Below are positions 9,699 to 22,698 of a DNA stretch of 64,000 nt, in pieces. The DNA comes from Escherichia coli (GTDB taxonomy: Bacteria; Pseudomonadota; Gammaproteobacteria; Enterobacterales; Enterobacteriaceae): assembly GCF_003334385.1 (NCBI RefSeq), contig NZ_QOWN01000024.1; one strand, written 5' to 3'. The notes beneath the pieces were generated by a model. It ran no database searches. It saw only the letters and a list, made by a program, of their open reading frames with translations, and had not been told where the DNA came from. A program made the position numbers and the translations under genes. Within the stretch, counting starts at the first letter, position 1, and each line of letters starts with the position of its first letter.

Positions 9699-10409
9699 AT
9701 GGCGGAGAATCAATCCACCGTAGAAAATGCAAAAGAGAAACTGGATCGGTGGTTGAAAGATGGCATCACCACGCCGGGTGGAAAACTCCCTTCAGAAAGA
9801 GAGCTGGGAGAACTGCTGGGCATTAAACGTATGACGCTGCGCCAGGCGTTGTTGAACCTCGAGGCAGAATCCAAAATCTTCCGTAAGGATCGTAAGGGGT
9901 GGTTCGTGACCCAGCCGCGATTTAATTACAGTCCGGAGCTGTCAGCGAGCTTTCAGCGGGCCGCAATTGAGCAAGGACGAGAGCCTTCCTGGGGGTTTAC
10001 CGAGAAAAACCGTACCAGCGATATTCCCGAGACGCTCGCGCCACTGATTGCAGTGACACCATCAACTGAACTCTATCGCATCACCGGCTGGGGGGCGCTG
10101 GAAGGACATAAAGTTTTCTATCACGAAACATATATTAATCCTGAAGTTGCTCCGGGTTTTATTGAACAACTTGAAAACCACTCATTTTCTGCAGTCTGGG
10201 AAAAGTGCTACCAAAAAGAGACGGTAGTAAAAAAATTGATTTTCAAACCCGTCAGAATGCCGGGCGATATCAGCAAGTATCTTGGCGGTTCTGCGGGTAT
10301 GCCAGCGATCTTAATTGAAAAGCATCGCGCCGACCAGCAAGGCAATATTGTCCAGATAGATATTGAATATTGGCGATTTGAGGCCGTAGACCTCATCATT
10401 AATCTGTAG
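9699..10409 (+). CDS. yihL: GntR-family transcriptional regulator
   Basis: 236-aa ORF; N-terminal wHTH (LPSERELGELLGIKRMTLRQAL); position after typA as in K-12. Confidence 0.85.
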   Translation: MAENQSTVENAKEKLDRWLKDGITTPGGKLPSERELGELLGIKRMTLRQALLNLEAESKIFRKDRKGWFVTQPRFNYSPELSASFQRAAIEQGREPSWGFTEKNRTSDIPETLAPLIAVTPSTELYRITGWGALEGHKVFYHETYINPEVAPGFIEQLENHSFSAVWEKCYQKETVVKKLIFKPVRMPGDISKYLGGSAGMPAILIEKHRADQQGNIVQIDIEYWRFEAVDLIINL

Positions 10410-10416
10410 GTGTTTT

Positions 10417-11397
10417 ATGATGACAATAAATAACGCAAGAAAGATTCTACAACGTGTCGACACTCTTCCTCTTTATTTACATGCTTATGCCTTTCATTTA
10501 AATATGCGGCTGGAAAGAGTGTTGCCTGCTGATTTACTTGATATCGCAAGTGAAAATAATCTACGTGGCGTCAAAATCCATGTTCTGGATGGCGAGCGTT
10601 TTTCTCTTGGTAATATGGACGATAAAGAACTCTCTGCCTTTGGAGATAAAGCCCGCCGTCTGAACCTTGATATTCATATTGAAACCAGCGCCTCAGATAA
10701 GGCATCTATTGACGAAGCCGTCGCCATCGCGTTGAAAACTGGGGCATCGTCCGTACGTTTTTATCCACGTTATGAAGGTAATTTGCGCGACGTATTATCG
10801 ATTATCGCTAACGACATTGCCTATGTACGGGAAACGTATCAGGACTGCGGCCTGACTTTTACGATTGAGCAGCATGAAGATTTAAAAAGTCATGAGCTGG
10901 TGTCGCTGGTCAAAGAAAGTGAGATGGAGTCTCTTTCCTTACTGTTTGATTTTGCGAACATGATCAATGCAAATGAGCATCCCATCGACGCCTTAAAAAC
11001 GATGGCACCGCATATTACCCAGGTCCATATTAAAGATGCCTTGATCGTTAAAGAACAGGGTGGCCTGGGTCATAAAGCCTGTATTTCAGGTCAGGGTGAT
11101 ATGCCGTTCAAAGCGTTATTAACGCACCTTATCTGCCTTGGTGATGATGAGCCGCAGGTGACGGCATATGGCCTGGAAGAAGAGGTTGATTACTATGCGC
11201 CGGCGTTCCGCTTTGAAGACGAAGATGATAATCCGTGGATCCCTTATCGCCAGATGAGTGAAACACCCCTACCAGAAAATCATTTACTGGATGCGCGGTT
11301 ACGTAAAGAAAAAGAAGATGCAATTAATCAGATAAATCATGTGCGTAACGTACTACAACAAATCAAACAAGAGGCAAACCATCTTCTGAACCACTAA
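10417..11397 (+). CDS. yihM: sugar-phosphate isomerase/epimerase-like TIM-barrel protein
   Basis: 326-aa ORF; conserved position between yihL and yihN. Confidence 0.8.
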   Translation: MMTINNARKILQRVDTLPLYLHAYAFHLNMRLERVLPADLLDIASENNLRGVKIHVLDGERFSLGNMDDKELSAFGDKARRLNLDIHIETSASDKASIDEAVAIALKTGASSVRFYPRYEGNLRDVLSIIANDIAYVRETYQDCGLTFTIEQHEDLKSHELVSLVKESEMESLSLLFDFANMINANEHPIDALKTMAPHITQVHIKDALIVKEQGGLGHKACISGQGDMPFKALLTHLICLGDDEPQVTAYGLEEEVDYYAPAFRFEDEDDNPWIPYRQMSETPLPENHLLDARLRKEKEDAINQINHVRNVLQQIKQEANHLLNH

Positions 11398-11498
11398 TAA
11401 GTTTTAACTCATACGCAGTTAATAAAACCATTCTATATGAATGGTCGGTATCTTATTGCCTTTAAAACAGTGATTTTAAAAATCGCTTAGGGGATGTT

Positions 11499-12764
11499 AT
11501 GCTCACGAAAAAGAAATGGGCGTTATTTAGTCTATTAACACTGTGTGGCGGTACAATTTATAAATTACCGTCGCTGAAAGATGCGTTTTATATCCCGATG
11601 CAGGAATATTTCCATTTGACCAATGGTCAAATTGGTAATGCCATGTCGGTAAACTCATTTGTTACCACAGTGGGCTTTTTTCTGTCTATTTATTTTGCCG
11701 ATAAACTACCGCGCAGATACACCATGTCATTCTCACTCATTGCGACAGGATTACTGGGTGTTTATTTGACGACAATGCCGGGGTATTGGGGCATCCTCTT
11801 TGTCTGGGCGCTATTTGGCGTTACTTGCGACATGATGAACTGGCCGGTCTTGCTCAAGTCGGTAAGTCGATTGGGCAATAGCGAACAACAAGGTCGGTTG
11901 TTTGGCTTCTTCGAAACAGGGCGTGGCATTGTCGATACCGTGGTGGCATTTTCTGCGTTGGCAGTATTTACCTGGTTTGGCAGTGGCTTATTAGGTTTTA
12001 AAGCAGGCATCTGGTTCTATTCCCTTATTGTGATTGCCGTAGGCATTATTATTTTCTTTGTCCTGAATGACAAAGAAGAGGCACCGTCCGTTGAGGTGAA
12101 AAAAGAAGATGGGGCATCGCAACACACCAGTATGACCTCGGTGCTGAAAGACAAAACTATCTGGCTTATCGCTTTCAACGTCTTCTTCGTTTACGCGGTT
12201 TACTGTGGCCTGACATTCTTCATTCCATTCCTGAAAAACATCTATCTATTGCCCGTTGCGCTGGTGGGGGCTTACGGCATCATTAACCAATACTGTCTGA
12301 AAATGATTGGTGGACCGATTGGTGGCATGATTTCAGATAAGATCCTGAAATCGCCGAGTAAATATCTATGCTACACCTTTATCATCAGTACCGCTGCGCT
12401 CGTACTGTTGATTATGCTGCCGCACGAAAGTATGCCGGTCTATTTAGGGATGGCATGTACGCTGGGCTTTGGCGCGATAGTCTTTACACAGCGAGCCGTA
12501 TTTTTTGCACCTATCGGCGAAGCAAAAATTGCTGAAAATAAAACAGGCGCGGCGATGGCGTTGGGTAGCTTTATTGGTTACGCCCCGGCGATGTTCTGCT
12601 TCAGTCTGTATGGCTACATTCTGGATTTAAATCCGGGGATTATTGGCTACAAAATCGTGTTTGGCATTATGGCCTGCTTCGCATTCTGTGGTGCGGTGGT
12701 TTCCGTAATGCTGGTTAAGCGTATTAGCCAACGTAAGAAAGAGATGCTGGCGGCTGAAGCTTAA
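11499..12764 (+). CDS. yihN: MFS-type inner membrane transporter
   Basis: 421-aa ORF, multiple hydrophobic segments; conserved position. Confidence 0.85.
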   Translation: MLTKKKWALFSLLTLCGGTIYKLPSLKDAFYIPMQEYFHLTNGQIGNAMSVNSFVTTVGFFLSIYFADKLPRRYTMSFSLIATGLLGVYLTTMPGYWGILFVWALFGVTCDMMNWPVLLKSVSRLGNSEQQGRLFGFFETGRGIVDTVVAFSALAVFTWFGSGLLGFKAGIWFYSLIVIAVGIIIFFVLNDKEEAPSVEVKKEDGASQHTSMTSVLKDKTIWLIAFNVFFVYAVYCGLTFFIPFLKNIYLLPVALVGAYGIINQYCLKMIGGPIGGMISDKILKSPSKYLCYTFIISTAALVLLIMLPHESMPVYLGMACTLGFGAIVFTQRAVFFAPIGEAKIAENKTGAAMALGSFIGYAPAMFCFSLYGYILDLNPGIIGYKIVFGIMACFAFCGAVVSVMLVKRISQRKKEMLAAEA

Positions 12765-12769
12765 TTAAT

Positions 12770-12848
<79 letters not shown>

Positions 12849-12854
12849 TTCACA

Positions 12855-13547
12855 TCAGAAGAAATACTTCGTCCCGATACGAATCTGGTTTTGCTCGCGG
12901 TGGTACGGTTCGACATTACGATCTAACCAGCGTAATTCGAAATAAGGCAGCCAGTGTTCATTAATGCGATAACGGAAGGTGTTAGTGATTTCCCAGTGAT
13001 GATCTTTTCCATTGCTGCTATTAAAGTCATTTACGCGTATAAAATAATGTGGCTCAAATGTATAGGAGAACTTATCGGTGATTTTAAAATTCCAGTAGGT
13101 ACCAATTTCATAGGTGTCATTATTATCCAGTTCCCCGCTCAAATCTGTTGAACTATAGTTATTATGGTTATAGCGATTTCGTACTGTCAGATTAAACCAT
13201 GGTACAAATTTATAGTTGACGTCCAGATACACTGCACCACCCGAACCGATACTCTTATCATTAATTAAGCCACCGGGCTGGATGGTTAATTTATCGGTTG
13301 GTTTAAATAACGGATACCAACCTTCGATTTCGTTATATCCATGTTTTAGTTCATCTTCTCGCTGAAAGGTGTAGGTATTGGTTAACATAATACCCGCGCC
13401 CATATCGAAGTTATAACCCACACGTAGCATAACCTCGCCCTGATCGGAGGCGAGATTATATGCCTCCCTGTTTTCGACGTATGCGCCAGCGAATACTGAG
13501 GCAGAGGTCAGAGAAGATAATAAAATTATTGCATTAATATTTTTCAT
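12855..13547 (-). CDS. ompL: outer membrane porin L
   Basis: ORF 12855..13613 trimmed to ATG 13547 (MKNINAIILLSSLTSASVFA signal peptide), 230 aa; beta-barrel-like alternation, C-terminal F. Confidence 0.85.
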   Translation of the reverse strand: MKNINAIILLSSLTSASVFAGAYVENREAYNLASDQGEVMLRVGYNFDMGAGIMLTNTYTFQREDELKHGYNEIEGWYPLFKPTDKLTIQPGGLINDKSIGSGGAVYLDVNYKFVPWFNLTVRNRYNHNNYSSTDLSGELDNNDTYEIGTYWNFKITDKFSYTFEPHYFIRVNDFNSSNGKDHHWEITNTFRYRINEHWLPYFELRWLDRNVEPYHREQNQIRIGTKYFF

Positions 13548-13613
13548 AATAAGTCCATTTTTAAACGTAGGGAGGCCGCCACCCACCAGGATGGAAATAG
13601 CGGCTATTGACAT

Positions 13614-15017
13614 TTATAACGTTACGGAAGCCGTTTTTTCTTCTGTCTCAATTTCTTTATTTTTGCGTTGGTTGATTTCCTCAATAATCAACGCAAACCG
13701 TTTTTCATTGAGTGTGTAAAAGAATCCCATCGTCAATGCAGCAATAATTGCCAGTGCACAAGGCCAGATAAAAATGAGCTGACGCAAACCCTGTAATGTC
13801 GCATCACTTTGCGCGATGTTGGGAACATAACCGATTTGCGTCAGCATAATGCCTGGCAAGAAGCCAGCAAGTGCGGCAGAAATTTTACGAAAGAAGGTAT
13901 AACCGGTATAAACAGAACCTTCGGCACGAATACCGGTTTTCCATTCACCGTAATCTACGGTATCTGGTACCAGCGCCCAGTTCAGGCTGTTTACAAAGGC
14001 CGTGCCAAAAAAGGCGACACAAGAGAACATGACGAAAGTGAAAGAGTTACTTCCCCAGAAATAATTCAGGATATCACCAACCGCCCATAGCACCATGCCA
14101 GCTAAATAAACCTGTTTTTTACCAAAACATTTTACAGTTAATGGCACCAGTAATACGCCGACGAGGATGCATCCCATACTGAAGAATCCCATCCACGACA
14201 ATAAATTAATATCATTCAGCACATACTGGGTGTAATAGACCTGAATCGCCAGTTTGATATTAAATGCCGCCAGGGTACACAAGTTAGCAATGCATAAAAC
14301 CAGCAATGGCGGATTCCGAAATATCGCGCAAAAAGATTTGAGAATACTGGCTTTATGTCCGGTTGGTGCTGTGTCCACATAATGCTCTTTGACGCCTCTG
14401 TAGCACAGCATCATAAAAATAAAGCCGCCAATGGAGAACATAAGTGCCGCACAGGCATAACCGACGGTTGAGTCAGAAAAAAGCGACTGCAACGGAATAA
14501 ACGCCACGGTACAAATCAATAGCCCTATGGTTGCACCACCCTGGCGGTAAGCCGCGAGCTGCGCGCGCTCATTCGGGTTTTTGGTAATTGCCGGGATCAT
14601 CGCGCCATACGAGCAGTTCATCAGACTGTATGAAAGCCCAAACATCATAAACAGCGCCGTGGCAATCGTCGTTTTAACCGGCAAACTAAAAGTGGTGGCG
14701 ATAAACTGGAGCGTTGCAATTAACGCCGCCGGAACCGCTGCATATAAAATAAAGGGACGAAATTTGCCTTTAGGCCCAATATTTTTCCGCGAGTCGAGTA
14801 AAAATCCGGTGAGCATATCGGTAAACGCGGTAAAAAACTTCGCCACCAGAAAGATAATCCCGCCATAGTAAGCTGGCATCCCTAATTCATCGGTATAAAA
14901 TTTGAGGAGATACAGAGTACCGATGCTAAGCATTAAATTCGAACCAACGTCGCCCATACCATAGGCGATTTTTTCCCACAGATTCAGTTTTAATGTCAGT
15001 GGATTATGGTCAGACAT
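13614..15017 (-). CDS. yihO: GPH-family sulfoquinovose importer
   Basis: ORF 13614..15023; MSDHNPLTLKLNLWEKIAYGMGD; glycoside-pentoside-hexuronide transporter family; paralog of adjacent yihP. Confidence 0.9.
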   Translation of the reverse strand: MSDHNPLTLKLNLWEKIAYGMGDVGSNLMLSIGTLYLLKFYTDELGMPAYYGGIIFLVAKFFTAFTDMLTGFLLDSRKNIGPKGKFRPFILYAAVPAALIATLQFIATTFSLPVKTTIATALFMMFGLSYSLMNCSYGAMIPAITKNPNERAQLAAYRQGGATIGLLICTVAFIPLQSLFSDSTVGYACAALMFSIGGFIFMMLCYRGVKEHYVDTAPTGHKASILKSFCAIFRNPPLLVLCIANLCTLAAFNIKLAIQVYYTQYVLNDINLLSWMGFFSMGCILVGVLLVPLTVKCFGKKQVYLAGMVLWAVGDILNYFWGSNSFTFVMFSCVAFFGTAFVNSLNWALVPDTVDYGEWKTGIRAEGSVYTGYTFFRKISAALAGFLPGIMLTQIGYVPNIAQSDATLQGLRQLIFIWPCALAIIAALTMGFFYTLNEKRFALIIEEINQRKNKEIETEEKTASVTL

Positions 15018-15056
15018 AATCACTCCTTATAACGCCCCGCAGGGCGTCGTTTATTA

Positions 15057-16442
15057 TTACGCCGTGCGTTTACGGGCTTCTATTTCTTCAACAATGCGGA
15101 CATACATCTTCTCGTTCAGGCTGTAGAAGCAGCCCATCGCTACAATGGTGACTACCGCCAGTGCGCTTGGGTAGATGAAGATCAGCTGGCGCAACCCTTC
15201 AATGGTGTGGTCAGCCTGTGCGACGTTCGGCACATAGCCAATTTGCGTCAGCATCCAGCCGGGGAAGAAACCTGCCAGCGCCTGAGAAACTTTGCGAAAG
15301 AAGGTGAAGCCGGTGTAGACCGTCCCTTCAGAACGGACACCGGTGCGCCACTCGCCGTACTCGACGGTGTCAGAAACCAGCGCCCAGTTCAGGCTGTTAA
15401 CAAACGCCGAACCAAAGAACGCCAGGCAGGAGAAAGCCACAAAGTTGACCGAGCCGCCGCCGAAGAAATAGTTGAGCAGATCGCCCAGCACCCAGATCAG
15501 CAGACCGCCAATATAGACCTTCTTCTTACCAAAACGCCTGACTGCACCAGGCATCAGGAACACGCCGATGAAAATACAGCCCATGCTGAAAAATCCCATA
15601 TATGACAACAGGATGGGATCGTTAAGCACGTACTGGGTGTAATAGACCTGAATGGCGAGCTTGACGTTAAACGCCCCTAAGGTACAGAGGTTGGCAATGC
15701 ACAAAATGAACAGTGGGCGGTTACCGGCAATTGCGCGGAAAGATTGCAACAGGCCTGGCTTTTGCGCCGGATTGGTAGGTTGGGTTTCGACATAACGCTC
15801 TTTCACGCCCGAATAGCAGATCCACATAAACAGCAGGCCAAACAGTGAAAACAGCGTGGCGGCGAAGATATAGCCAAGTTGCTGATTACCCTCGATAAGA
15901 TTCATAACCGGCACGAATCCCACCGTGCACAGCAGCAGGCCCAGCGTAGCGCTGCCCTGACGCCATGCTGCCAGCGAGGCGCGTTCGTTGGGGTTTTTGG
16001 TAATGGCGGGAACCATTGCGCCGTAGGAGCAGTTCATCATGCTGAAAAACAGTCCGTAAAGCATAAACAGAATAGTGGCCATCACCGTTTTACCGGTGAC
16101 ATCGAACGGTGTGCCGATAAAGTTAGCGATTGCCAATAAGGTAACCGGGAATGACGCATACAGAATAAAAGGACGGAATTTACCTTTTGGACCGATCTTG
16201 CGTCGGGAATCCAACATGATGCCGGTTCCCATATCGGTAAAGGCGGTAAAGAATTTCGAGATCAAAAAGATAATGCCGCCATAGGTGCCAGGCAGCCCCA
16301 GAACGTCGGTATAAAACTTCAAAAGATAAAGCGTACCAATATCCAGCAGGATGTTAGAGGCCAGATCGCCGATACCGTAAGAGAGTTTCTCTTTAAAGGG
16401 CAGGCGCAAAGTTGCCGGATCTTCCGTTGTGATGTGACTCAT
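15057..16442 (-). CDS. yihP: GPH-family transporter of the sulfoquinovose cluster
   Basis: ORF 15057..16475 trimmed to MSHITTEDPATL; strong similarity to YihO across the core (LYLLKFYTD..GPKGKFRPFILY). Confidence 0.9.
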   Translation of the reverse strand: MSHITTEDPATLRLPFKEKLSYGIGDLASNILLDIGTLYLLKFYTDVLGLPGTYGGIIFLISKFFTAFTDMGTGIMLDSRRKIGPKGKFRPFILYASFPVTLLAIANFIGTPFDVTGKTVMATILFMLYGLFFSMMNCSYGAMVPAITKNPNERASLAAWRQGSATLGLLLCTVGFVPVMNLIEGNQQLGYIFAATLFSLFGLLFMWICYSGVKERYVETQPTNPAQKPGLLQSFRAIAGNRPLFILCIANLCTLGAFNVKLAIQVYYTQYVLNDPILLSYMGFFSMGCIFIGVFLMPGAVRRFGKKKVYIGGLLIWVLGDLLNYFFGGGSVNFVAFSCLAFFGSAFVNSLNWALVSDTVEYGEWRTGVRSEGTVYTGFTFFRKVSQALAGFFPGWMLTQIGYVPNVAQADHTIEGLRQLIFIYPSALAVVTIVAMGCFYSLNEKMYVRIVEEIEARKRTA

Positions 16443-16487
16443 CGTTATTCTCCATTTGCCCGTGAGTTTCCCCACGGGCGGGCATGA

Positions 16488-18524
16488 TTAGATGTTTTTT
16501 AACGAGGCGAACAGTGCAGCCCATTCGCTGTCGGCGCGATAAAAGACCGGCGGCTTGCCGATGGGCGCTTCAACAGTTATTTCTCCACCGTGGAAGGTTT
16601 CTCCGGTCCAGGCGTGGACCCAGTTATCCTCTGGCAGATAGAGCGTCCAGTCGCTGCGACCTTCTTCGTGTACCGGAGCAACCAGAATGTCGCGACCTAA
16701 CAGGTACTGATATTTCAGGGAATAGGTCTGCGCGTCGTCTTCGTAATGCAGGAACAGCGGGCGCATAACCGGCAGGCCGGACTTCGCATTCAGCGCGACG
16801 GCCTCTTTCAGGTAAGGTTTCAGGGTGGTGAAGACGGTGGTCATACGGGCGAAATGGGCGATGGTTTCCGCGTCGCCGTCAAACTGCCAGTTGTCGCCAG
16901 GACGGTTACCTTCGTGGGTGCGCATCATCGGCGTGAAGGCGCTGAAATCGCACCAGCGCAGCAGCAGCTCTTTGCTGCGCTTCATCTCAAACAGGGTGGT
17001 ATAACCGCCAATGTCGCTGTGATGCAGGCCATGTCCGGTCATTGCCAGAGATAGCGCCGCCGGGACAACCGACGCCAGGCCATCGTCCAGACTCCAGTCC
17101 ACGTTCTGGTCACCCGCCCACATCATGGTGGAGTATTTCTGGCTACCGGTAGAACCGGCGCGCATAAAGAAGAGGATCTCGCCGAGCTTGCCCGTTTCTT
17201 CAAGGGCTTCGTAGTTACATTTCGCCCACAGCGCGGGCCAGGCGTTATGCATAATTTCCGCGCTGATGCCGTTATGCAGGTACGTGTCGGTGGGCAGATA
17301 CTCGCCGAAGTCAGCCATCCAGCCGCCGCAGCCGAGTTCAATCATGTTCTTTTTGATAACTTCCTTGAACCAGGCGTAGGCTTCCGGATTGGTGAGATCG
17401 ACAACGCCGCCGTAGAACTCGCCAAACTCCACCAGATAGTCGCCACCGGCGACATCTTTTGCCAGATAACCGCGCTTTGCCGCCTCTTCGCAGAGATCTT
17501 TATCACTGGCAACATACGGGTTGATATAGGCAAGGAACTGCACGCCCTCTTTGTTCCACTGCTTGATACGCGAATCCAGTTGCGGGTAGTTTTCGCTGTT
17601 CCACTTCCAGTTCCACATCACGCGTTTGCCAAAAGAGGTCATACGAATACCGGACCAGTCCTGCGCCCAGATGCCGTTGACCTTCACGCCCGCGTTACGC
17701 ATGGTGTCCAGTTTCTTCTGGCACACTTCCGTCCCGCCCTGAATGCCGAGCGTTACTCCGTCATAAATCCAGTCGGGCAGTTCTGGCTGGCGTCCCAGCA
17801 GGGCGGTTAATTTTTCCAGCAGGGAGATGTATGTGTCAGCACATTCAAAACGCAGCGTTGCTTTGTCTTCCCACAGCGCCAGTTCATGGTATTCCGGGGC
17901 ACTAAAGTCGAAGTTCATATAGCAACTGTTATCAACATGGCAGTAATACTTCTGCGTGCTGACAAACGTAGGCTGTGGGAAGAAAGTCCAGTAATAGTCG
18001 CCGCCCGCATTTTCTTTGCAGTCGGCCTGCCAGGTGACATAGGTTTGTTTATTGCGACCAACGCCTTGTTCACTGGTCCATAGCGGGAACGGTTTGCCAC
18101 GCAGATCGAAGTAGGAAAACTGTTCGCCGCAGCCGTAGATATGGTCCTCTGGTTGAGCGGCAAGGCGCAGCCAGATACGGTTGTGGTTAAGGTTGTCGTT
18201 TTGTAGTTCCAGCAATAAACGGCCCTGATCGTCGGCAGAGATATTCAGCGTGGCGCTAATGTCAGAACCACGGCTGAAATGGATTAACCAACCATCCGGC
18301 GACTGGCTGACGATGGCGTCGGTAAGCGCAATTTTCTCCTGTAGTTTATCTTTAATGCTGAAATTGCCGCGGAACATATCGATATCCGCAATACCTGAAC
18401 CAATCCATAAACAAGGATTATCTTTGCTATGGGTTAAAATAAGACGCTGTTGAAAATGTAGGGTAAAACTGTCGTTATTCTGATGAAACTGAAAATCTGG
18501 TAATTGTGGGCGTGGCGTATCCAT
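16488..18524 (-). CDS. yihQ: sulfoquinovosidase (GH31 family)
   Basis: 678-aa ORF MDTPRPQLPDFQFHQNNDSF; GH31-like motifs (WMADFGE, HNAWP). Confidence 0.92.
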   Translation of the reverse strand: MDTPRPQLPDFQFHQNNDSFTLHFQQRLILTHSKDNPCLWIGSGIADIDMFRGNFSIKDKLQEKIALTDAIVSQSPDGWLIHFSRGSDISATLNISADDQGRLLLELQNDNLNHNRIWLRLAAQPEDHIYGCGEQFSYFDLRGKPFPLWTSEQGVGRNKQTYVTWQADCKENAGGDYYWTFFPQPTFVSTQKYYCHVDNSCYMNFDFSAPEYHELALWEDKATLRFECADTYISLLEKLTALLGRQPELPDWIYDGVTLGIQGGTEVCQKKLDTMRNAGVKVNGIWAQDWSGIRMTSFGKRVMWNWKWNSENYPQLDSRIKQWNKEGVQFLAYINPYVASDKDLCEEAAKRGYLAKDVAGGDYLVEFGEFYGGVVDLTNPEAYAWFKEVIKKNMIELGCGGWMADFGEYLPTDTYLHNGISAEIMHNAWPALWAKCNYEALEETGKLGEILFFMRAGSTGSQKYSTMMWAGDQNVDWSLDDGLASVVPAALSLAMTGHGLHHSDIGGYTTLFEMKRSKELLLRWCDFSAFTPMMRTHEGNRPGDNWQFDGDAETIAHFARMTTVFTTLKPYLKEAVALNAKSGLPVMRPLFLHYEDDAQTYSLKYQYLLGRDILVAPVHEEGRSDWTLYLPEDNWVHAWTGETFHGGEITVEAPIGKPPVFYRADSEWAALFASLKNI

Positions 18525-18632
18525 AAATAATCTCCATAGAGTATAAAGCTAATATTTCATGCCATCCTGTTGTTACAGGTTTCATTAATTAAAGAATGTG
18601 GTGCTGGTATAAATTAAAACCCGCATAAGTGA

Positions 18633-19508
18633 TTATTTACTTTCTTCAGCCCGGCGGATTGCCGCCACTTTTTTACCAAATGCCAGTTGCAGTATAACTA
18701 ACAAGGTAAAAGGAGGCAGAAGCGCGGCAGCAGCGGGAATTCCCAGCGCGCCTTTTATCAACATAGAACCGGAGGCAATCAGCAACAAAAAGACCATCAC
18801 ACGGAACACTTTGACTGAAATGCGTTTATGCACATATTGTCCAACCAGTGAACCGAGGATCATGGTGGGAATACAAAACAGCACCAGTTTAAAGATAGAA
18901 ACAGTCAAAATTCCGCTGGTCGCCAGCCCGCCGATCACCGCGATGTTGTTTGCGGTGAAGAAAGCGTTCAGAGTGCCACGAAATGCCGCCGGGCCTAAGT
19001 TACGCAGCATACCGTAGATAACCATCGGCGGTCCGTTGGTTGAAAACGCTGCCCCTAACGCTCCTGCCACAGCGCCGATAGGTGCGGCGATCCAGTTGCG
19101 GTCATAAATCGGCAGGCGTGGAATAAACATACTGTAAAAGGAGTACAGGATAAGGAATCCGCCTAAGCCCACTTTCATAAAATGGTCGGGTAAATATGAC
19201 AGCGCATATAAACCGACGGGTATTCCCAGAAACGAGAAAATAATCAGTACCATTGCCGATCGCCAATCCGTTTCTTTACGTGACAGCCAGGTGGCGTACA
19301 AGGCGGTCGCGGTGCCGACAATCACCGAGAGCGGAGTTGCCATTTTTACGGGGAGCATTAACGTGACGAGCGGCATGGTGGTTAAACCACCGCCAAATCC
19401 CGCGCATATCCCCACAAAGGTATAAAGAAACATTAACGCGATAACGATACATACCACGTTTGTTTCCAGCATGACCCCATCCGGTGAAAATAACGTAAAA
19501 AAGTCCAT
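18633..19508 (-). CDS. TSUP (TauE/SafE, DUF81) family membrane permease; candidate sulfonate/sulfite exporter
   Basis: 291-aa hydrophobic ORF with duplicated glycine-rich TSUP motifs (AGFGGGLTTMP; GAVAGALGAAFSTNGPPM); SD AGGAA 6 nt before ATG; co-oriented and tightly spaced between yihQ and yihR. Confidence 0.8.
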   Translation of the reverse strand: MDFFTLFSPDGVMLETNVVCIVIALMFLYTFVGICAGFGGGLTTMPLVTLMLPVKMATPLSVIVGTATALYATWLSRKETDWRSAMVLIIFSFLGIPVGLYALSYLPDHFMKVGLGGFLILYSFYSMFIPRLPIYDRNWIAAPIGAVAGALGAAFSTNGPPMVIYGMLRNLGPAAFRGTLNAFFTANNIAVIGGLATSGILTVSIFKLVLFCIPTMILGSLVGQYVHKRISVKVFRVMVFLLLIASGSMLIKGALGIPAAAALLPPFTLLVILQLAFGKKVAAIRRAEESK

Positions 19509-19568
19509 GATATTTCCTGTTGTGTAAATACAACCCTAAACAATGATCTCGTTCTTTTCTTAATAAAA

Positions 19569-20471
19569 TTAATTGTGCTGCCCGTAAATATTAAAAAACA
19601 GGCGGTGCGTTTTCCCTGGTTCCAGTAATAATAAGTCGAGACCTGAATTAAAGGCGTTAGGTGGGCAACTCATAGGTTCAACTGCCAGTCCCTGACGCTG
19701 TAATTTTTCGCCGCTATAAATCTGCACCCAGGGTTGATCGGAACAAAGGCTTACCGAAAGCGCCTGTTGTGGATGGGTAATGGTTATTTCCCACAGATCA
19801 TTAGCGGTTTTAAAGGTGTGGTCGATTTTTGTCGCGGCTATTTTTTTCGCCTGCGTGAAATTTAAATCCAGCTCATCAACGTGGTGAAGCGTTGTCGGAT
19901 TAGCGTGCTCATCGACGGCATAAACCTGGTTTGCCGGAAGCTGGAACAGATATTCATCAACAGATGTTAAGTTGCAGGTTAAATAAGGATGAATACCCAC
20001 ACCATAGGGTGCGGTCACAGTACCAATATTCTGACTTGCGATCTCAACGGAAAGACCCGTGCGTGCATTGAGCGAATAAACAACCTGCGAAGCCAGCATA
20101 AACGGATAGCCGTAACTGGGTGGCAGAAAAGCTGTCAGGGTAACGCTGGTGGCGGTTAATTCGCTGATTTGCCAGTCACGCCAGGCGAGCAGCCCATGAA
20201 TAGCGGCTTTTGAACCATGTTCATTAATGGGTAACTGATATTCCTGCCCCTGATAGCGATAACAGCCGTTGGCGATCCGGTTCGGCCACGGAATAAGGAC
20301 TTTGCCCAGATGTGCCAGCGGCATCTCTTCGGGTTTATGTGGAATAACTAAATGACAGCCCTGAAAGGTTAATTCAGCCAGACCTGCACCGACGGTCACA
20401 ATGGTCGCGTGATAATCCCCCGCGGCAAGTGAAACGGTCTGTCCACTGCAATGCATGTTGGTGATTTGCAT
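19569..20471 (-). CDS. yihR: aldose 1-epimerase-family mutarotase (sulfoquinovose mutarotase)
   Basis: 300-aa ORF MQITNMHCSGQTVSLAAGDYHATIVTVGAGLAELTF; aldose-epimerase fold signatures. Confidence 0.88.
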   Translation of the reverse strand: MQITNMHCSGQTVSLAAGDYHATIVTVGAGLAELTFQGCHLVIPHKPEEMPLAHLGKVLIPWPNRIANGCYRYQGQEYQLPINEHGSKAAIHGLLAWRDWQISELTATSVTLTAFLPPSYGYPFMLASQVVYSLNARTGLSVEIASQNIGTVTAPYGVGIHPYLTCNLTSVDEYLFQLPANQVYAVDEHANPTTLHHVDELDLNFTQAKKIAATKIDHTFKTANDLWEITITHPQQALSVSLCSDQPWVQIYSGEKLQRQGLAVEPMSCPPNAFNSGLDLLLLEPGKTHRLFFNIYGQHN

Positions 20472-20539
20472 ACGAGGTACCTTTATTGAATAACGACATA
20501 CCCGGCGTGCAGCCTGATATGTCGTTTTTTTTTAGTCAG

Positions 20540-21781
20540 CTATTTCGCGTTAATATCCAGCAGACCCGCCGCAACTGCCGGAGCCAGGCCTGGCGCTAAC
20601 GGGATACGCGGGATCACCAGGCAATGCAGCAGGTGATAAATATCCTGTTTACCGTCCCAGACTTTCGTGGTGACTTTATTGTCCGCATCCAGCTCCTGCC
20701 ACCAGGAACCATTTTCATAGTCCATCAGGTACTTAATGCAGTAGTCCCACCATGTCTGATACCAGGTTTCATACTGGCGATCGCCGGTGACGGTGTAGAG
20801 CGCGTAGGCCGTACCCATCGCTTCGACGATAGGCCAACGCACACGTTCGCGGACCACCGGTTTTCCTTCCCAGTCAACGGTATAAACAATCCCGTCCGCA
20901 CCATCGGGTGCCCAGGCATCACGCACGGTGGCGTTAAACAGACCTTTGGCATCTTCTAGCAGCCATGCTGGCGGTTGTTCGCAACGGGCTTCCAGGGCCG
21001 CGTGGATGTGCAGCATTAAACGGCCCCATTCGATCCAGTGGCCTGGTGTACCTCCGAACGCGCGGAAGCGGTGCGCCGGGTTATCTTTGTTGTAATCCGG
21101 CAGCGGATTCCACTGGGTATCGAAGTGTTCGTTAACGCGATAATGATTATTTCTTGCGACGTCGTGGATAATCACGGAAGCCACGCGAATCGCGCGATCC
21201 AGCCATTTTTTGTCATGCGTTACGTCATAAACAATTAAGAAAGCTTCCACTGCGTGCATATTGGCATTGCCGCCGCGGTACTCTTCGGTTTTGCTGAAGG
21301 CTTCGTCCCAGGACTCCAGGCACATCTGCTCTTCTTCGCTCCAGAAGTATTTCTCGATAATTTCAATGGTGTAATCGAGCAGCTTGCGCGCTTCCGGATG
21401 ACCGGTAGTGACGGCGCTGGCAGCACCCAGCAGAGCAAAGAAATGTTGATAGCCCTGTTTGGAGGCATCCACCACGCCCTCGTCATTCACACAGGCATAC
21501 CAGCCGCCATATTTTTTATCGCGCAGTGCGCCGTTCATGGCTTTAATACCGTGATCAACCAACGAGTAAGCGCCAGGTCGACCCATCGCCGCAGCAACGG
21601 AATAAACGTGCAACATCCGAGCTGTGATCCACAGATGGGTGCCCATCTCTTCTTTGATTTGCCCTTTATTGCCTAACCAGCCAAATCCAGTCGGTACTAC
21701 GGAATTTTTACCAAAATCAAAGATGCGATCGGTTTCCTGTTCCAGCCAACGGTTGTGACTTAAAGTGTTAAACCATTTCAT
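20540..21781 (-). CDS. yihS: sulfoquinovose isomerase (AGE-family)
   Basis: 413-aa [28 protein letters not shown]-acyl-glucosamine 2-epimerase-like. Confidence 0.92.
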
Positions 21782-21796
21782 TTTTGTATCCCCATC

Positions 21797-22675
21797 TTAA
21801 CGGCGTTTAGCCATCATTTCGTCGACGATATCGCCCAGTTGTTGTAATTTCGGTGCACAAACGTCACGCAGCATCAGCTCGTTGTCTGGTAAACCGACGA
21901 CCGATGCCCAGACGGCACGACCAGCCAGGAAGCCCGATGCACCCGCTGTCATTGCCACGCGTACGGCACGCGGGAACAGTTTTTCGTCGACACCGGAAGA
22001 GAGGATCACCCACGGCATATTGATATGGTCATTCAGACGTTGTGAAGCACTGAGAAGCTCTTGTTGCGGACCTTTACCGTAAAGCGGCATTTCAACTTTG
22101 TAGAGGTCAGCGCCACTGTCGCCCAGCTCTTTGGCAGCATCGATGATCGCTTGTTCGCGATCGAATTTATCGCCACGACGTGGTGGGCGGACGACTGGCT
22201 CAATAATGCTTACCAGGCCGTGTGAGTGGCACAGTTCGTTAAACTCTTTCACCATATCCAGGCGTTGCTGCGCATCTTCATCACTACGCCACAGCACCAG
22301 CAGTTTTAAGGCTTTGCCACCGTCTTGTTTGATCTGTAGCGGATTGATTTTGCGGTCAATGACCACGCTATCTACCGGAATACCGTTGCCAGGAATGAAC
22401 TCATCGGCGGCGACAATCATGGCGCAACTTTTGGCAATCGCGTTTTGCTCAACCACCTGGCGGTAACAGAATTGTTGATCTACCAGAATCGCCGAGGCAT
22501 AAGGCGAGAGGGTCTTCGCCGCGTTAACTTTGAAATCAGTTAAAACGCTATCGGCTACCGGAGCGGGTGCCCCAGCCGCGGCAAACATCATGCGCATGGC
22601 TTCGCGCTGATCGACCGCCAGCATGGCAAAACCGCCCGATGCGCGCGTAATGTCGTTGATGGTGTACTTATTCAT
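21797..22675 (-). CDS. yihT: 6-deoxy-6-sulfofructose-1-phosphate aldolase
   Basis: 292-aa [31 protein letters not shown]; class I aldolase-like. Confidence 0.92.
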
Positions 22676-22698
22676 TCATTTATTCCTTTATCCAGTCG

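Follow-up and report, generated by a model that had tools for sequence, protein, structure and literature searches.

The window analysed here, a stretch of 64,000 nucleotides of Escherichia coli DNA, contains in its minus strand an intact gene of 291 codons, starting with ATG and encoding a TSUP (TauE/SafE-type) permease, which lies between yihQ and yihR and is co-oriented with both (Table 1). The genes around it make up a complete sulfo-EMP cluster, ompL-yihOPQ-(TSUP)-yihRSTU / yihV-csqR, as established from the open reading frames of the window and from the annotation of strain NCTC9699, 100% identical to the window over the 1301 bp searched (window 18400-19700). The Pfam MFS_2 model is matched by the Salmonella orthologues of yihO and yihP.

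An earlier sequence-only reading had located the gene inside a sulfoquinovose (SQ) cluster, in the orientation of its neighbours, at 108 bp from yihQ and 60 bp from yihR, and with a Shine-Dalgarno sequence of its own. Both distances turned out to be exact, the full sulfo-EMP gene set surrounds the gene in the NCTC9699 annotation, and the motif AGGA is found 6 nt before the ATG. The choice of this start codon is supported by the N-terminal sequence MDFFxLxTPDG, kept in all orthologues. RefSeq lists the protein as WP_000345434.1, under the product name "sulfite exporter TauE/SafE family protein".

Table 1. Features of the TSUP locus and of the surrounding sulfoquinovose cluster, in window coordinates.
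Feature	Position	Strand	Basis or remark
ompL, porin, last gene of the cluster	12855-13547	-	annotation
yihO, GPH/MFS_2-type permease	13614-15017	-	coordinates transferred from NCTC9699
yihP, GPH/MFS_2-type permease, exporter assumed in the literature	15057-16442	-	coordinates transferred from NCTC9699
yihQ, sulfoquinovosidase, downstream neighbour	16488-18524	-	ORF and annotation
TSUP-yihQ spacer, 108 bp	18525-18632	-	about 55 bp beside yihQ (18525-18579) common to K-12
Haplotype-specific segment, about 990 bp	18580-19568		alignment; K-12-type counterpart is an unrelated 143-bp AT-rich filler
TSUP (TauE/SafE-type) permease gene, 291 aa, intact	18633-19508	-	ORF, Pfam PF01925, AlphaFold, RefSeq WP_000345434.1
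yihR-TSUP spacer, 60 bp	19509-19568	-	without promoter or terminator consensus
Shine-Dalgarno AGGA, 6 nt 5' of the TSUP ATG	19515-19518	-	direct sequence reading
yihR, sulfoquinovose mutarotase, upstream neighbour	19569-20471	-	ORF and annotation
yihS, isomerase	20540-21781	-	ORF and annotation
yihT, aldolase	21797-22675	-	ORF and annotation
yihU, sulfolactaldehyde reductase, DHPS-forming	22699-23595	-	ORF and annotation
yihV, sulfofructose kinase	23763-24659	+	annotation
csqR, repressor	24693-25478	+	annotation

Family and predicted fold of the protein

Membership in the TSUP family, previously claimed from the sequence, was borne out by a profile search: the Pfam TauE model (PF01925; TC 2.A.102) is matched with E=4.7e-35, residues 23-248 being aligned to positions 2-235 of 237, nearly the full model. 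No NCBIfam model, equivalog models included, matches the protein.

A structural model was predicted with confidence by AlphaFold from 48 sequences (pLDDT 92.8, pTM 0.88). It contains a first set of helices at residues 16-36, 40-49, 54-75, 82-105 and 108-128, mirrored by a second one at residues 138-155, 159-169, 173-198, 203-227 and 232-255. In each modelled repeat, a transmembrane helix is followed by a short helix and then by three further transmembrane helices, according to a 4+4 plan; hydropathy analysis gives 8-9 hydrophobic spans. Self-alignment of the sequence did not detect the internal repeat (score 39; mean of shuffled sequences 39.5), and the 4+4 organization is visible only in the predicted model. 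In the family alignment, no columns are better conserved than the glycine-rich motifs with which the repeats begin: G37, F38 and G39 are invariant across the 48 family members, distant ones included, and G145, G149, G159, P160 and P161 vary little or not at all. The description of the product as a polytopic protein of 291 aa with duplicated glycine-rich TSUP signatures is upheld by the conserved motifs and by the 4+4 helices of the model.

The protein is longer than is typical of the family (about 240-260 aa), and all distant homologues end at about residue 250-254 of the query. The extra length is a variation and no ground for excluding the protein from the TSUP family. None of the distant TSUP relatives has the C-terminal extension of about 40 residues (residues 252-291, window 18633-18755); in the model it forms a ninth helix at residues 259-290, and within the orthogroup it ends in the conserved tail GKK(V/I)AAIR...DE. 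A sequence search of the PDB returned no homologue. The nearest solved fold retrieved by fold search, a weak match, is that of the undecaprenyl-pyrophosphate phosphatase BacA/UppP (TM about 0.45, E=0.01). To our knowledge, neither a solved structure nor a mechanistically proven transport direction is available for any member of the TSUP family.

Distribution in E. coli and age of the gene

In K-12 MG1655, yihQ and yihR are adjacent and separated by a 198-bp spacer devoid of genes, in agreement with the earlier statement that K-12 has no gene at this position. Of 5426 complete E. coli genomes, 1296, about a quarter, carry the TSUP gene, always on the chromosome and almost always in single copy; it is full-length in 1288 of the carriers, which include O157:H7, and its alleles are 96-100% identical. 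Being already annotated by RefSeq in more than 1000 genomes, the gene is neither rare nor an oddity of a single strain. The K-12-type filler is found in 2634 of the 5426 genomes, and of the 3958 genomes with a yihQ/yihR junction, 3930 have one or the other of the two haplotypes.

About 1470 of the 5426 genomes have no match to the junction, and probably correspond to the "short" yihTUVW cassette of Kaznadzey et al. 2025. The yih cassettes of 413 strains were divided by these authors into "long" and "short" types only; the TSUP gene is unmentioned, and the words TauE, exporter and permease are absent from their text. Since the gene is common in E. coli and absent from that scheme, the long cassette carrying it constitutes a common third variant, unreported by these authors.

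A clean deletion does not account for the difference between the two haplotypes. After about 55 shared bp beside yihQ, about 990 bp of the TSUP haplotype face 143 bp of unrelated, AT-rich sequence. No remnant of the gene was detected above chance in the K-12 spacer by blastn-short, tblastn or local alignment compared with shuffled sequences, and the indel carries no scar showing its direction. The same filler occupies every TSUP-less allele sampled, with 2361 genomes at 99% identity or more, a near-uniformity which fits a single derived event.

Insertion sequences were occasionally observed at the locus. In E. coli AF206 an IS1 replaces the region from ompL through yihQ and truncates yihR (L018 5248-6809); in strains PK8277 and PSS-08-2 an IS1A lies inside the TSUP gene or adjoins it.

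The comparison with other E. coli and Salmonella genomes, suggested in the sequence-only reading, revealed that Salmonella enterica has an orthologue in the corresponding place, with the order yihR, TSUP, yihQ of carrier E. coli; the Salmonella protein is very common, being listed in 23,831 index blocks. In E. whittamii, too, the gene lies between yihR and yihQ. Between E. coli and Salmonella the TSUP gene shows a dN of 0.087 and 87% amino-acid identity, synonymous sites being saturated; the corresponding dN values are 0.085 for yihU, 0.076 for yihQ and 0.073 for yihT, with identities of 87-88%. The low dN marks the gene as being under purifying selection, and a divergence equal to that of the neighbours fits co-inheritance with the cluster rather than recent insertion. 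The gene was thus probably already part of the yih cluster in the common ancestor of Escherichia and Salmonella. From the same position and the same divergence in Salmonella we infer the polarity of the indel: the K-12 arrangement appears to have arisen by secondary loss, 143 bp of unrelated sequence having taken the place of about 990 bp that comprised the gene and its flanks.

It might be objected that in E. coli the gene is a decaying passenger with no current role, since two thirds of the genomes with the long cassette are devoid of it and IS1 elements occasionally interrupt or flank it. This appears extremely unlikely, given the full-length gene in 1288 genomes, a dN as low as that of functional neighbours, and the 77-87% identity kept across genera, from Vibrio to Salmonella.

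Two observations concern the cluster at large. The mutarotase gene yihR evolves much faster than the others, its product sharing 69% amino-acid identity with that of Salmonella (87-97% for the other genes); it is 90% identical to its E. whittamii counterpart (97-99% for the other cluster genes). The whole cluster shows 91-99% nucleotide identity to K-12, except for one identical 300-bp window.

Cluster context in other genera

The orthogroup to which the protein belongs is tight and isolated. Only one full-length cluster, at 80% identity, was retrieved from 1.84 billion representatives at 50% identity; full-length relatives beyond it share at most 38% identity, measure about 240 aa and stop where the ninth helix starts. 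Internal identity ranges between 77 and 99%, and two of the nearest outsiders lie in unrelated contexts. A search at the 90%-identity level listed members at 80-87% from Salmonella, Kluyvera, Enterobacter, Klebsiella, Hafnia, Mixta, Morganella, Pantoea, Raoultella, Lelliottia and others; a genome scan based on exact peptide words had reached only 5 species, many fewer than the protein search.

All 13 orthogroup members sampled lie inside sulfoquinovose clusters and are co-oriented with them; two cluster types and three insertion positions are represented. Five of the contexts are of the sulfo-EMP type, with two insertion points: in Escherichia and Salmonella the TSUP gene lies between yihR and yihQ, in Enterobacteriaceae RIT691 and in Klebsiella quasipneumoniae between yihQ and the permease gene(s). 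The remaining eight are sulfo-ED-like and belong to Leminorella, Edwardsiella, Vibrio owensii, Hafnia, Enterobacter kobei, Mixta, Morganella and Kluyvera. In those clusters whose upstream end could be recovered, the genes run as follows: LacI-type regulator, sodium:solute symporter, IlvD/Edd dehydratase, HpcH aldolase, aldose epimerase, SMP-30-type lactonase, reductase of the beta-hydroxyacid-dehydrogenase family, short-chain dehydrogenase (SDR) and, last, the TSUP gene. The SDR matches PDB entry 9gwu, "Sulfoquinovose 1-dehydrogenase", with E=4.9e-99 (next match 3e-60), which identifies this second type of cluster as sulfo-ED-type.

In place of the sulfolactaldehyde dehydrogenase of Pseudomonas, these clusters encode a reductase. 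The enzyme is 28-30% identical to YihU, and of the residues of the YihU sulfonate pocket K171 and N175 are kept, while N174 is replaced by H and S178 by V; 2,3-dihydroxypropanesulfonate (DHPS) is accordingly only the putative product of the ED-like clusters. In a neighbour-joining tree, drawn without support values, the EMP-linked TSUPs form two small groups among the ED-linked ones. This suggests that the gene may have moved between modules, in line with the two insertion points in sulfo-EMP clusters.

Neither a minus-strand promoter consensus nor a terminator-like site was found in the two spacers flanking the TSUP gene. A search for a CsqR-type operator yielded no 12-mers common to the CsqR-bound yihU/V spacer and three neighbouring gaps above shuffle expectation. 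The gene follows yihQ at 17 bp in Klebsiella and the SDR gene at 9 bp in the six ED-like clusters with called genes, against gaps of 60 and 108 bp here; in RIT691 its reading frame overlaps the start of a tblastn match to yihP. The TSUP gene, thus closely spaced from its neighbours in relatives, is probably co-transcribed with yihR and yihQ, and would be part of an SQ-induced leftward transcript.

Other features of the spacers were recorded. A palindrome, CCTGTTGTTACAGG, is located at 18566-18579, about 45 bp 5' of the yihQ start; it is kept in the K-12-type spacer as CCTGTTATTACAGG, is partly duplicated in strain DG351-2, and could be a regulatory site for yihQ. A second indel affects the yihS-yihR spacer, which is 68 bp long here (20472-20539) and 137 bp in K-12 (L001 7227-7363); in the window this spacer contains a plus-strand hairpin followed by a T-run, at 20503-20524.

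Candidate role in C3-sulfonate export

The E. coli sulfo-EMP pathway ends in DHPS, without desulfonation, and K-12 grows on SQ and excretes DHPS. Export of this compound has been credited to YihP by inference from K-12, as "most likely" only, so that the exporter is indeed not firmly assigned, as the sequence-only reading had it. That reading also proposed the TSUP protein as a candidate DHPS exporter, a proposal strengthened by the occurrence of the orthogroup in the yih clusters of Salmonella, Klebsiella and RIT691 as well as in ED-like clusters. The core steps of the two pathways do not share enzyme families; common to both are SQ as input, a mutarotase, sulfolactaldehyde as output, a reductase and the TSUP permease. 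A reductase, YihU-type or otherwise of the beta-hydroxyacid-dehydrogenase family, is present in every cluster. The ED-like clusters encode exactly two transporters, the sodium:solute symporter, of importer type, and the TSUP protein. As each cluster already has a canonical importer and the TSUP protein is the only other transporter of the ED-like ones, the role left for it is export.

On these comparative grounds, we consider it reasonably likely that the TSUP protein exports DHPS, the C3-sulfonate end product. It would be a dedicated inner-membrane component of enterobacterial sulfoquinovose catabolism, releasing the DHPS made by YihU and possibly sulfolactate too.

The main alternative is that the permease imports SQ or an SQ glycoside, supplementing YihO/YihP. 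The TSUP family was named for the uptake of 4-toluenesulfonate, SQ is common to both types of cluster, and Snow et al. 2022 state in passing that TauE/TSUP proteins of sulfo-EMP and sulfo-ED clusters import SQ and its glycosides. We regard this as rather unlikely: every cluster already includes an importer, either the GPH-type YihO/YihP or the sodium:solute symporter; deletion of yihO alone has been reported to abolish growth of K-12 on SQ; and the ED-like clusters would be left with two importers and no exporter. Glycoside import would moreover be pointless in the latter, where no sulfoquinovosidase is encoded within +/-8 kb.

Sulfite export, as in the RefSeq product name, is a very unlikely function. 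It is the activity mentioned in the Pfam and RefSeq family names, and sulfite export has been ascribed to the TauE protein of Cupriavidus necator. The Pfam lists of sulfo-EMP and ED-like clusters, however, contain no C-S-cleaving enzyme (sulfolyase, Xsc, monooxygenase or glycyl-radical enzyme), and a sulfite-releasing desulfonation enzyme is encoded in none of the 13 contexts. Since the E. coli pathway moreover stops at DHPS, "sulfite exporter" is best taken as a family label, unaccompanied by any NCBIfam equivalog match, and as a functional name it is probably wrong.

The permease might, alternatively, act as a relief valve or exchanger, for sulfolactaldehyde, for sulfolactate under aerobic conditions, or as an SQ/DHPS antiporter. 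The Hafnia cluster has an aldehyde dehydrogenase gene beside the regulator, so that sulfolactate may be made there too. Nothing specific speaks against this possibility, a variant of DHPS export differing in substrate or coupling; we hold it to be unlikely.

K-12 grows on SQ and excretes DHPS without the TSUP gene, which must consequently be inessential, another exporter being available. YihP, whose gene lies in the same cluster and to which DHPS export has been ascribed, belongs to a family unrelated to the TSUP one, that of the glycoside:cation symporters, normally importers. It is absent from the TSUP-bearing cluster of Klebsiella quasipneumoniae, whose single GPH permease resembles YihO (73% identity) more than YihP (68%); this weakly suggests that YihP may be dispensable where the TSUP protein is present. 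A wider proposal can be advanced tentatively, as one that may well prove wrong: that the TSUP orthogroup, and not YihP, provides the dedicated DHPS exporter, as a part interchangeable between ED-like and EMP clusters, and that K-12 would have lost it, YihO and YihP both being importers and DHPS leaving K-12 by a non-dedicated route.

Proteins of comparable type are known from other systems. SftE is a TauE-type protein predicted to export sulfolactate (SL)/DHPS, encoded in the sulfo-TAL (transaldolase) clusters of Bacillus aryabhattai, Clostridium symbiosum and Eubacterium rectale (PMC7491151); TauE-type proteins are likewise predicted SL/DHPS exporters in Arthrobacter sulfo-EMP clusters. As with SftE, a TSUP/TauE permease is found here inside an SQ cluster, and export of a C3-sulfonate is predicted from the context. 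The two systems differ in pathway and phylum, and the protein described here belongs to an isolated gammaproteobacterial orthogroup with an extra C-terminal helix and at most 38% identity to outsiders. TauE of C. necator H16 and the SafE-type TSUP proteins, linked to the export of sulfite, sulfoacetate or sulfolactate, belong to the same Pfam family, PF01925, their roles having been assigned mainly from genetic context. The family length is typically about 240 aa, compared with 291 aa here, and the genes of those proteins accompany sulfite-releasing desulfonation, whereas no desulfonation enzyme is encoded near the present gene. Within K-12 itself, the TSUP paralogue YfcA belongs to the same family, but shares only 26% identity over 117 residues and lies in an unrelated housekeeping context; the gene is not a recent duplicate of yfcA.

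In the literature searched, no paper describes the TSUP gene. The family, the annotation and the idea of TauE-type exporters in sulfoglycolysis clusters were known beforehand. Three points appear to be unreported there: that a TSUP gene is a common, and probably ancestral, component of the enterobacterial sulfo-EMP cluster; that the same orthogroup closes the ED-like clusters of many Enterobacterales; and that K-12, on which the YihP assignment is based, is a variant lacking the gene. Enterobacterial DHPS feeds sulfite- and H2S-producing bacteria of gut and soil, and export is the step linking SQ breakdown to that metabolism. If a dedicated TSUP permease is ancestral to the cluster and also serves ED-like ones, a concrete candidate exporter becomes available and the K-12 pathway model would be incomplete; a TSUP protein with a defined physiological substrate could then be examined, in a family without a solved structure.

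Additional observations concern the chromosomal surroundings of the clusters. In E. coli and Salmonella the slot between yihX/yihY and typA/glnA holds the sulfo-EMP yih cluster (window 9699-27042); in Kluyvera ascorbata the same slot holds the ED-like cluster with its TSUP gene (L026 1-12768), and alternative sulfoquinovose modules seem to be exchanged at this site. In some Salmonella genomes (L009/L010 16845-20876) the yih cluster is followed by a gene for an uncharacterised protein of 282 aa, a YheCD-type ATP-grasp gene, a sulfatase gene and a radical-SAM gene; these four genes are missing after the cluster in another Salmonella (L008). In Enterobacter kobei (L014 1095-20876) an ED-like cluster with the TSUP gene lies beside a sulfo-EMP cluster without TSUP and yihR, the two being parted only by a T6SS Hcp/Tlde1 pair and a small ORF. 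The paired pathways might have a single mutarotase and a single exporter in common, or else their substrates might be different sulfosugars.
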